Assembly: GCF_044324785.1 (NCBI RefSeq)
Contig: NZ_CP172127.1
Source: Escherichia coli
GTDB lineage: Bacteria > Pseudomonadota > Gammaproteobacteria > Enterobacterales > Enterobacteriaceae
DNA length: 64,000 nucleotides
Strand: one strand, 5' to 3'
The notes beneath the pieces were generated by a model that ran no database searches, was not told where the DNA came from, and worked only from the letters and a program-made list of their open reading frames with translations. Positions 3 to 1,955 of this stretch are shown here, in pieces (positions within the stretch are counted from its first letter, which is position 1; each line of letters opens with the position of its first letter). Position numbers and translations under genes: made by a program.

Positions 3-1955
3 GGTAATAATGAGACATGGTCATATATATATAGTACTCAAAAAGCGACGGCAGATTGTTCGCTGGAATATCAACCGCGCCTCAGCGAGTTGCAGGGGCT
101 TTATAACGATCACCCTAACGGGGCGATAACGACAGATCTGGGGGTGCCGACAACAGCCGGAAACTGGTGGACTTATGAGCTTACTCTTAGTGGCACGTCC
201 TGGTATTATCAGGTCATTAACCTGAAAACAGGACAACCTTCGTCTTCTTTCACTGCGTCTGCTCAGATGCTTTGTCTGACGCAGCCTCACGCTTTATCAT
301 CAAGCGTGACCCTCACGTCAGCCGCATTTGATGAGACGAAAACCGCCAGTAACGGCGGCACACCTTCGGCATCGGCGAAAAAGGGCGAGACAATCCCGTT
401 AGTCGTGACAGTAAAAGACCAAAATGGCAACCTGGTGAGTGGTGAGGGCGTGACGCTTCAGCGGGCGCAGGCGAAAAGTCGTTCAGGAATTAGGCCCTCA
501 TCGTCGGCAGATGATCTTATTGTAGATGTCGTCACACCGACAGCAGCCCGTATTTCCTTTGCTCAGGATACGGCAAAATGGCTTGGTTTTACCGGCAGTG
601 ATGGCACAGTAACATTCAATGTAACGCAAAACGCCACCACCGGCCTGGCAACGCCGTTTACGGTCTCGCTTGCACAAGATCCGCAGCTCACGTCAAACCT
701 GGACCTGATATTTACCGTGGTCACCAGCCCTGACTCCCTGGATGCCAACTACTGGGGCCATATGCCAGAAACGGTGACAGCGGCAAATGGAACCGTCTTT
801 GAACGATCGAAATTGTGGAAGGAGCTGCCATCGACCTCCGGGGTAAATAAAACCAATAACAATAATGAGGACTGGCCCTATTTTTCGTCAACCACTAAAG
901 CAAATTCCAGCCTCAGCCCTTGTGAGGAAGCCCGGCAACCGTTGCTCAGCGATATGAAGTCACTGTATCAACGTTATCCCAATAACACCCTTACGACGGA
1001 AACTGGCTGGTCAGTTTATTATTACTGGTGGGCGCAGGATAAGACTACAGATGGTAAAAATCAGTCACTCAATATGAAAGATGGCACAACGACATTGAAT
1101 GGTAATGCCGCTTATCAGGCGTGTCTGGTGTCTGCACGCGCGACGGTTTCCAGCGTCACACTGACCTCAACAGCGTTTGATGCTGACAGCCAGGCGGCGA
1201 AAGTGAAAAAAGGCGAAGCCATGCCCGTTACCGTGACGGTGAAAGACAGCGCCGGGAATACGGTGCCGAATGTGGAATTTACTTTGAAACGCGGTGAGGC
1301 ATCGCCGCGTAACGCTGGGGCAACGTTGTATGGTGATGTGGTGGCGATGGACGATCTCATCGTTCAGCCGTTATCTGGTTCGGCTGTTACGCTGAGTGAA
1401 AGCGGTAATACCATTAGTGGCATGACAGGCGCGGATGGGACGGCAAGTTTTACGCTCCGCCAGGATAATACCCCTGGTTATAAAACGCCACTGACGGTTA
1501 CTCTGGCTAATTACGCTTCCGCGACAGACACGCTGGACGCTATTTTTACGGTACCAACCAGCCCGAATGTTTCCTCGGCGCACTTTTGGGGACATATGGC
1601 AGACACTGCAGTGGTGAATGGTAAATCGCTACATCGACCGTTGTTAACGACAGAATTGCCGTCCGGGGCTAATCCCGTATCCTCACCGATTATTAACTAC
1701 GAAAACTGGGCTTCTGCACATATCATTGATGCCAGTAAATGGGATATTGCAAGACAGTGTGGCAGCATAGAAAATGCACCGACATACAATGAATTAGAGT
1801 TGTTGCACACTGTTTTTAATTCACTGGGATGGCCGTCTTCACCAAGTTTTCCTTATTTGTCCTCTCAACAGTGTGGGATGGACGAAGGCACTGGAGCACA
1901 GGATTGTAGTATCACGCTAATGAATAAACCGGGTCTGGTGACCTGCTTCCAGTAA
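3..1955 (+). CDS. 5'-truncated gene, C-terminal 651 codons of a large Ig-like (Big-domain) repeat adhesin, RatA/invasin-like
   Basis: Reading frame is open from window position 3; the track start at 90 is a TTG and is not the real start. Two ~180-aa internal repeats (SSVTLTS.AFD...VTVKD..GN ... FTV.TSP....WGHM) are typical of bacterial Ig-like adhesin repeats. Lies next to xseA. Confidence 0.55.
   Translation, partial: GNNETWSYIYSTQKATADCSLEYQPRLSELQGLYNDHPNGAITTDLGVPTTAGNWWTYELTLSGTSWYYQVINLKTGQPSSSFTASAQMLCLTQPHALSSSVTLTSAAFDETKTASNGGTPSASAKKGETIPLVVTVKDQNGNLVSGEGVTLQRAQAKSRSGIRPSSSADDLIVDVVTPTAARISFAQDTAKWLGFTGSDGTVTFNVTQNATTGLATPFTVSLAQDPQLTSNLDLIFTVVTSPDSLDANYWGHMPETVTAANGTVFERSKLWKELPSTSGVNKTNNNNEDWPYFSSTTKANSSLSPCEEARQPLLSDMKSLYQRYPNNTLTTETGWSVYYYWWAQDKTTDGKNQSLNMKDGTTTLNGNAAYQACLVSARATVSSVTLTSTAFDADSQAAKVKKGEAMPVTVTVKDSAGNTVPNVEFTLKRGEASPRNAGATLYGDVVAMDDLIVQPLSGSAVTLSESGNTISGMTGADGTASFTLRQDNTPGYKTPLTVTLANYASATDTLDAIFTVPTSPNVSSAHFWGHMADTAVVNGKSLHRPLLTTELPSGANPVSSPIINYENWASAHIIDASKWDIARQCGSIENAPTYNELELLHTVFNSLGWPSSPSFPYLSSQQCGMDEGTGAQDCSITLMNKPGLVTCFQ

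Follow-up and report, generated by a model that had tools for sequence, protein, structure and literature searches.

The analyzed stretch of DNA (hereinafter, the window) comprises 64,000 nucleotides (nt) of the Escherichia coli contig NZ_CP172127.1 (assembly GCF_044324785.1). Its left edge is occupied by the 3' end of a large adhesin gene of the RatA-like type. The xseA gene lies 38 nt downstream of the adhesin gene on the opposite strand, and further on a prophage is inserted at the 3' end of guaA. The adhesin gene is the main subject here, together with the sinH-sinI-ratA island to which it belongs.

Open reading frame and repeats

Translation of the plus strand between positions 3 and 1955 gave 650 sense codons followed by a TAA stop codon at 1953–1955. 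The list of open reading frames (ORFs) showed that this frame leaves the window at its left edge, as had been stated in the earlier note on this DNA, which was made from the letters alone, and that no start codon inside accounts for it. A run of 650 codons without a stop would have a chance of roughly (61/64)^650, i.e., ~1e-14, and the opposite strand across 3–1955 does not contain a rival ORF longer than 89 amino acids (aa). The open frame and its repeats are real and far beyond chance. The window fragment carries a part of unit 7 and the complete units 8 and 9 of the full-length protein described below, and aa 1 of the window corresponds to aa 2030 of that protein.

Analysis of the fragment using Pfam revealed the adhesion domain InvE_AD (PF05689; E 5.6e-63) in three stretches and the domain BIg21 (PF05688; E 2.8e-46) in two stretches. 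BIg21 is an Ig-like domain; Big_1 remained below the threshold (30.1 bits, cutoff 34.9). The segment FTV(V/P)TSP....WGHM, which had been singled out as conserved, was indeed found twice, at aa 237–254 and 515–532 (nt 711–764 and 1545–1598), 278 aa apart. The repeats were originally described as two of ~180 aa; the repetition is genuine, and their length had to be corrected, as one repeat unit consists of two domains, BIg21 and the adhesion domain, and measures 268–285 aa. Units 8 and 9 share 39.7% identity over 292 aa (E 9e-54). A repeat search at the DNA level in positions 1–1955 yielded two matches of 21–22 nt and nothing more; hence, the repeats are old and can be detected in the protein only. 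A promoter and terminator scan of positions 1700–3600 did not reveal a terminator-like site between the convergent stop codons of the ratA-like gene and xseA.

Full-length gene in E. coli strain N3

Positions 1–3400 of the window were compared with 5,426 complete E. coli genomes using megablast. The best match was E. coli N3 (NZ_CP031609.1), with 100.0% identity over 1–3400; the next one showed ~97%. In a base-by-base comparison of window positions 1–5842 with N3, one mismatch was found (nt 807). In the N3 genome, the frame runs 6,087 nt further upstream, up to an ATG codon and a signal peptide, which results in a coding sequence of 8,040 nt for a protein of 2,679 aa annotated as 'adhesion domain-containing protein'. 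The upstream extension proposed in the earlier note, performed in N3, therefore met no stop codon beyond the window edge and recovered the full gene, and the designation '5'-truncated' is correct for the window and incorrect for the gene. The N-terminus of the N3 protein, MSLTLNKILVLCALLISAMLPGWSWA followed by ES, looks like a typical Sec signal peptide by inspection, which agrees with the expectation that such a peptide should be present. It is followed by an N-terminal region of ~190 aa without a Pfam match and then by nine BIg21 domains, each followed by InvE_AD, with a period of 268–285 aa. The junction motifs in the full-length protein are also nine in number and have the same spacing.

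The N3 protein was assigned to the NCBIfam equivalog family NF011844 'RatA-like protein' with 5399.8 bits (cutoff 3870), and its residues 1–2679 cover model positions 1–2683, i.e., the model end to end. The window fragment matched positions 2031–2683 of the same model with 1196.5 bits, which is below the cutoff because the fragment is a quarter of the protein. Homologues in the databases are named 'RatA-like protein', 'DUF823 domain-containing adhesin' or 'outer membrane protein RatB'. Tandem units of BIg21 and InvE_AD/DUF823 are present both in the window (two and three domains, respectively) and in N3 (nine of each).

The gene order in N3 is der-yfgJ-sinH-sinI-ratA-like-xseA-guaB-guaA, where sinH encodes an intimin-like inverse autotransporter. 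The site between yfgJ and xseA is thus covered from both sides: the xseA side lies in the window and the sinH-sinI side in N3. In the sinH-sinI-ratA ('ila') island, which was acquired horizontally and lies between yfgJ and xseA, this gene occupies the third place. The earlier suggestion of a RatA/SinH-type island beside xseA is borne out by the NF011844 match, by the N3 gene order and by the synteny with the CS54 island of Salmonella. The gene is already known as a member of a curated, named family in a described island associated with extraintestinal pathogenic E. coli (ExPEC); for genome annotation the clipped adhesin end matters little.

One could suppose that the ratA-like gene of the source strain is a real 5'-truncated remnant, i.e., a pseudogene, and not a gene clipped by the window. 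Genuine remnants do occur at this locus: in Escherichia albertii, an IS1-flanked inversion has left a 3' piece of 784 aa beside xseA, and in an E. coli O145:H28 genome the last ~800 nt are all that remains of the gene. Against this, the gene is intact in N3, from which the window differs in one of 5,842 bases, all 650 codons are open with no sign of decay, and in 934 genomes at least 80% of the full island length could be aligned. We regard the remnant as very improbable.

Domain organization and structure

An alignment of 25 sequences (the last unit, eight internal N3 units and 16 homologous C-terminal units) demonstrated that one pair of cysteine residues is invariant across all adhesion domains. 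The terminal adhesion domains have a second cysteine pair and the conserved C-terminus ...G.x.C(F/V)(Q/R). A sequence search of the PDB with the fragment gave one match, 5n40 (E 1.1e-15), which spans the Ig-plus-adhesion unit; this entry was deposited as 'Putative invasin' and is titled 'Structure of Yersinia pseudotuberculosis adhesin InvE'. Modeling of window aa 385–650 using AlphaFold2 led to a model with a mean predicted local distance difference test score (pLDDT) of 90.6 and a predicted template modeling score (pTM) of 0.85. In a Foldseek comparison of this model with the PDB, the top match was again InvE 5n40 (E 8.5e-15, template modeling (TM) score 0.72). The C-terminal distal tip of the protein therefore consists, in the model, of an Ig-like domain and an adhesion domain. 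With its two-domain repeat unit of ~280 aa, the whole protein is a chain of nine Ig-plus-adhesion modules and thereby carries nine InvE-type adhesion domains in a row.

It was also considered whether the fragment belongs, as passenger, to a classical inverse autotransporter of the intimin/invasin type with its own LysM domain and barrel upstream. Yersinia InvE carries this Ig-plus-adhesion module at its tip, and the model weakly resembles intimin and invasin in fold (1f00, 1cwv and 6tqd; TM 0.25–0.29). However, the full-length N3 protein contains BIg21 and InvE_AD alone and starts with a plain signal peptide; no match to IAT_beta (PF11924) or LysM was found in it by Pfam, and the RatA and RatB proteins of Salmonella have an equally barrel-less layout. 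With N3 serving as a proxy sequence, the presence of a barrel of its own upstream was rejected (no PF11924 match), and such an architecture is extremely improbable. The check for an intimin/invasin beta-barrel suggested in the earlier note was thus negative for the ratA-like protein, which lacks the inverse autotransporter (type Ve) barrel; the barrel resides in the adjacent SinH (IAT_beta E 1.1e-108). Since Rat proteins are barrel-less in any case, the RatA reading is not contradicted by this result.

The coordinates of the features are listed in Table 1. Taken together, the region is very probably the C-terminal end of an intact E. coli ratA-like gene that encodes a barrel-less adhesin of nine units, with export by the mechanism proposed below, for which separate degrees of confidence are given.

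Table 1. Features of the window, with the evidence on which each assignment is based.
Feature	Position	Strand	Basis
ratA-like adhesin gene, 3' end: last 650 codons and TAA	3..1955	+	NF011844 match, comparison with N3
Adhesion domain 7 (InvE_AD), first ~28 residues beyond the edge; window aa 1–88	3..266	+	Pfam; full-length aa 2002–2117
BIg21 number 8, Ig-like; window aa 128–240	384..722	+	BIg21 E 1.2e-22
Junction motif FTVVTSPDSLDANYWGHM joining BIg21 number 8 to adhesion domain 8	711..764	+	
Adhesion domain 8 (InvE_AD), one conserved Cys pair; window aa 243–375	729..1127	+	profile positions 1–136 of 136
Sole in-gene difference from strain N3: T here, C in N3	807..807	+	mismatch list
BIg21 number 9, Ig-like; window aa 404–517	1212..1553	+	Pfam
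Junction motif FTVPTSPNVSSAHFWGHM, conserved	1545..1598	+	
Terminal adhesion domain 9, divergent, four Cys; window aa 523–650	1569..1952	+	alignment, AlphaFold2 model, Foldseek
xseA, encoding the large subunit of exodeoxyribonuclease VII; convergent with the adhesin gene; right-hand island border	1994..3364	-	
Prophage, ~40.7 kb, at the guaA 3' end	6624..47387	.	bounded by the direct repeat ATTGAGTGGGAATGATT

Distribution of the island and its Salmonella relatives

The island was found in 1,749 of the 5,426 genomes, including those 934 in which it is aligned over at least 80% of its length. Its alleles fall into classes of ~97%, 88–90% and 78% identity, and in ST131-type alleles the C-terminal 650 aa are ~60% identical to the window protein. 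The GC content of the island (42–55%) is not clearly atypical. PMC12928451, citing Shea et al. 2022, places the ila cluster (sinH, sinI, ratA) between xseA and yfgJ, describes it as derived from CS54 and states that its mutants are attenuated in murine urinary tract infection. Co-transcription of sinH with sinI has been reported (PMC12525524). Between sinI and the start of the ratA-like gene there is a spacer of 120 nt (L001 13796-13915), which contains a strong inverted repeat, GCAGCATTCCC-GCAA-GGGAATGCTG, followed by TTTCC, and a second strong inverted repeat, CATATTTTGCTTAAT-CCCG-AATTAAGCAAAATATG. Through these repeats, the sinH-sinI transcript may be attenuated or terminated ahead of ratA.

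The E. coli island is syntenic with the CS54 island of Salmonella, where the gene order is der-yfgJ-sinH(730)-sinI(319)-ratA(1865)-ratB(2435), followed by shdA-xseA-guaB-guaA; the name CS54 for this locus follows the gene list in PMC10048834. The comparison with the Salmonella loci recommended in the earlier note revealed the same domain plan and the same place, together with a closer relationship to RatB than to RatA. The N3 protein scored 2249.5 bits against the RatB family NF011842 (cutoff 4079) and 1997.4 bits against the RatA family NF011843 (cutoff 3700), i.e., below both equivalog cutoffs. Over the whole length, its identity was 42–52% to RatB versus 33–47% to RatA (segment-wise BLASTP; L001 13916-21955 against L007 11080-20960 and L002 1-1790). 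According to this sequence comparison, RatB and not RatA is the nearer relative of the E. coli 'RatA-like' protein, whose name is therefore misleading with regard to orthology. The closer relative is thus the paralogue with a reported gut-colonization phenotype: ratB, shdA and sivH mutants are poor colonizers of the mouse intestine, as stated in PMC10048834, which cites Kingsley 2003.

A second triad was found in E. coli AP025682.1 between der and yfgJ (L003 4740-10355). It consists of genes for an inverse autotransporter (731 aa), a SinI-like protein (311 aa) and a Rat-like protein of 784 aa with two units, and the usual sinH-sinI-ratA genes are also present in this genome, after yfgJ. The small triad is independent of the usual one. 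A set of inverse autotransporter, SinI-like and Rat-like genes recurs at three independent loci.

In Escherichia albertii (L005 9231-12355 and 18936-22355), the rat gene is split by the IS1-flanked inversion of the xseA-guaBA-yfgGHI segment. The 784-aa 3' remnant lies beside xseA and the 5' part is inverted ~7 kb away, so that this is a genuine 5'-truncated copy.

Putative export of the ratA-like protein

The features of the locus allow us to suggest the following course of events. The ratA-like protein would be exported by Sec, and its adhesion domains would be oxidized in the periplasm with the formation of disulfide bonds. SinH, the co-encoded inverse autotransporter, would then pass the barrel-less protein across the outer membrane in the manner of a two-partner system, following the example of ZirT with ZirS and ZirU, and the protein would become a long multivalent adhesin, either surface-bound or released, that aids colonization. 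The idea has precedents: Rat-like proteins were proposed as substrates of inverse autotransporters by Heinz et al. 2016 (PMC4943183), with the secretion of ZirS and ZirU by ZirT as the model, and Goh et al. 2019 (PMC6714894) put forward the same export idea for IatB/SinH. By analogy with these systems, we consider transfer across the outer membrane with the help of SinH to be plausible, with a chance at or slightly short of even.

This assumption is consistent with the arrangement of the genes. In all the loci examined, the ratA-like gene is located after a gene for an inverse autotransporter and a SinI-type gene, and in N3 sinH and sinI lie directly upstream of it. The layout corresponds to that of ZirS/ZirU: the gene follows a barrel gene, and its product is barrel-less, has a signal peptide and is composed of Ig-type domains.

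In addition, the RatA-like protein and SinI have a motif in common at their mature N-termini (ESAWQDSSDTVGEFNGTVP and EDSAWIDSGETNIFQGTIP, respectively). The pattern W.{5,12}[FILVM].G[TS].P was searched for in the first 90 aa and was found in 79 of 79 distinct N-termini of the SinI family from Escherichia, Salmonella, Citrobacter, Kluyvera, Pseudocitrobacter and Leminorella, as well as in every recovered N-terminus of the Rat family, including those of Salmonella RatA and RatB and of the short Rat-like protein encoded in the second triad. Outside the N-terminal region it occurred once in 89,753 aa, and in a comparison with this pattern the motif was absent from SinH. Distant SinI-like proteins retain the core I-x-G-x-x-P straight after the signal peptide. 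The motif is located at L001 13916-14050 in the RatA-like N-terminus and at L001 12818-12970 in that of SinI, and was also located in L003 and L007. No mention of such a motif was met with in the papers that were read; the Rat N-terminus was called highly divergent by Heinz et al. 2016.

The mature N-terminal 309 aa were modeled using AlphaFold2 with moderate confidence (pLDDT 67). The first 27 residues scored below 50, and so did the motif segment, as would be expected if the latter were disordered. The model suggests Ig-like sandwiches without a beta-helix of the two-partner secretion (TPS) type, and its fold matches were generic Ig domains. Judging from the sequences, the motif might be a common targeting signal for the export of the RatA-like protein and SinI by SinH; we put this forward as a possible but rather doubtful function. 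If it were so, the sinH-sinI-ratA genes would constitute a secretion system of type Ve with a two-partner-like character, serving a multivalent adhesin of ~280 kDa. The exit of such a giant barrel-less adhesin from the cell could be approached through the motif in common with SinI, which provides a concrete handle that can be mutated. SinH is currently among the vaccine candidates against ExPEC.

The central domain of SinI (residues ~90–180; L001 13085-13360) was found in 4 to 27 copies in many giant proteins of up to 6,421 aa in a library of 1.84 billion proteins. It is a widespread repeat domain for which the Pfam scan made here gave no significant match, with weak similarity to IG_AIR9 alone. 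A PDB sequence search with SinI gave nothing even at E 10.

Several points speak against the interpretation given above, beginning with the gene itself. The 6 kb upstream in the source strain lie outside the window, and the integrity of the gene is inferred from the near-identical strain N3. Furthermore, the window allele has serine in place of a conserved proline in adhesion domain 8: the change at nt 807 converts FERPKL of N3 to FERSKL, replacing the nearly invariant proline (P162) of F(K/E)RP.L, and could be either a real variant or a sequencing error. With regard to export, the N-terminal motif could serve otherwise, e.g., as signal-peptidase context or in chaperone binding. It is difficult to see how a folded protein of ~280 kDa with disulfide bonds would pass through a barrel of 12 strands, and IatB/SinH drives biofilm formation without the downstream gene (PMC6714894). 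Finally, a profile search with the SinI alignment among 1.84 billion representatives yielded no true member of ZirU or ZirS; it did return distant SinI-like proteins and many giants sharing the SinI middle domain.

Two of these difficulties, namely the narrow barrel and its activity in biofilm formation without the downstream gene, would be accounted for if the RatA-like adhesin left the cell by another route, e.g., type II secretion, stayed in the periplasm or was released by lysis, SinH and SinI being merely linked to it. A precedent is InvL of Acinetobacter, a barrel-less invasin-like adhesin that is described as a type II secretion substrate (PMC9245377). This explanation is opposed by the recurrence of the triad at three independent loci, by the specific N-terminal motif that SinI and Rat proteins share, and by the experimental precedent of ZirT, reported in PMC4943183 to secrete ZirS and ZirU. 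We find an exit independent of SinH rather unlikely, and SinH-dependent transfer is the preferred interpretation.

Prophage at guaA

The prophage noticed earlier at guaA, an epsilon15/phiV10-like podovirus of ~40.7 kb, was recognized by its integrase, its other phage genes, a direct repeat and matches to podoviruses. The 17-bp repeat ATTGAGTGGGAATGATT overlaps the guaA stop codon (6624–6640) and recurs at 47371–47387. The gene of a tyrosine integrase (6831–8081) starts 193 nt after guaA and is followed by genes for RecT, terminase, portal/adaptor, tail and tailspike proteins, the tailspike gene being located at 42477–45233. The first 19 kb are 97–98% identical over 71–79% to vB_EcoP_PAS61, phiv142-3 and TL-2011b, which are podoviruses similar to epsilon15/phiV10; for phiV10 itself, the identity was 96% over 51%. 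Strain N3 does not carry the prophage, though it is otherwise near-identical. The guaA-integrase junction was found in 566 of the 5,426 genomes; together with the occurrence of the island in 1,749 of them, this agrees with the earlier view of the region as a variable neighbourhood.

Compared with N3, the last ~800 nt of guaA (5843–6640) differ by ~20 or more substitutions, which are scattered and lie at distances of multiples of three bases; in the 5,842 nt before them there is a single one. The segment 5843–6640 looks like a recombination tract that ends at the attachment site, as if the flank had arrived with the prophage.

Comparison with known systems

The closest relatives of the gene are the E. 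coli RatA-like genes (NF011844 / PRK15316), which are the same gene at the same place between yfgJ and xseA and differ as alleles only: after N3, the closest are ~97% identical at the DNA level, those of the CFT073 type ~88% and those of the ST131 type ~78%. Salmonella RatB and RatA (NF011842 and NF011843) share with it the signal peptide, the conserved N-terminal region, the repeats of BIg21 and InvE_AD, the cysteine-containing C-terminus and the location beside sinH-sinI. However, between sinI and xseA there are two rat genes and shdA in Salmonella but a single rat gene in E. coli.

InvE of Yersinia pseudotuberculosis contains the same module of an Ig-like domain and an adhesion domain, according to both sequence and fold. 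In contrast to the ratA-like protein, which has nine copies of the module and is barrel-less, proteins of the InvE type have, in their Pfam architecture, their own barrel and carry the module at the tip of the passenger; an example is the Xenorhabdus protein P0101, with LysM, IAT_beta, BIg21 and InvE_AD domains. The similarity to intimin and invasin is limited to the succession of Ig-like domains and a C-terminal disulfide-bonded adhesion domain and to the weak fold matches; unlike them, the ratA-like protein contains neither LysM nor a beta-barrel, and its adhesion domain is of the InvE type.

With regard to export, the nearest counterpart is the ZirT/ZirS/ZirU system of Salmonella, in which a barrel gene is likewise followed by genes for barrel-less Ig-type proteins. 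SinI showed a weak match to the ZirU family (E 5.4e-7), and no sequence relation of ZirS or ZirU to the RatA-like protein was detected here. It was this system that earlier authors proposed as a model of how SinH functions together with SinI and the Rat proteins (PMC4943183, PMC6714894).

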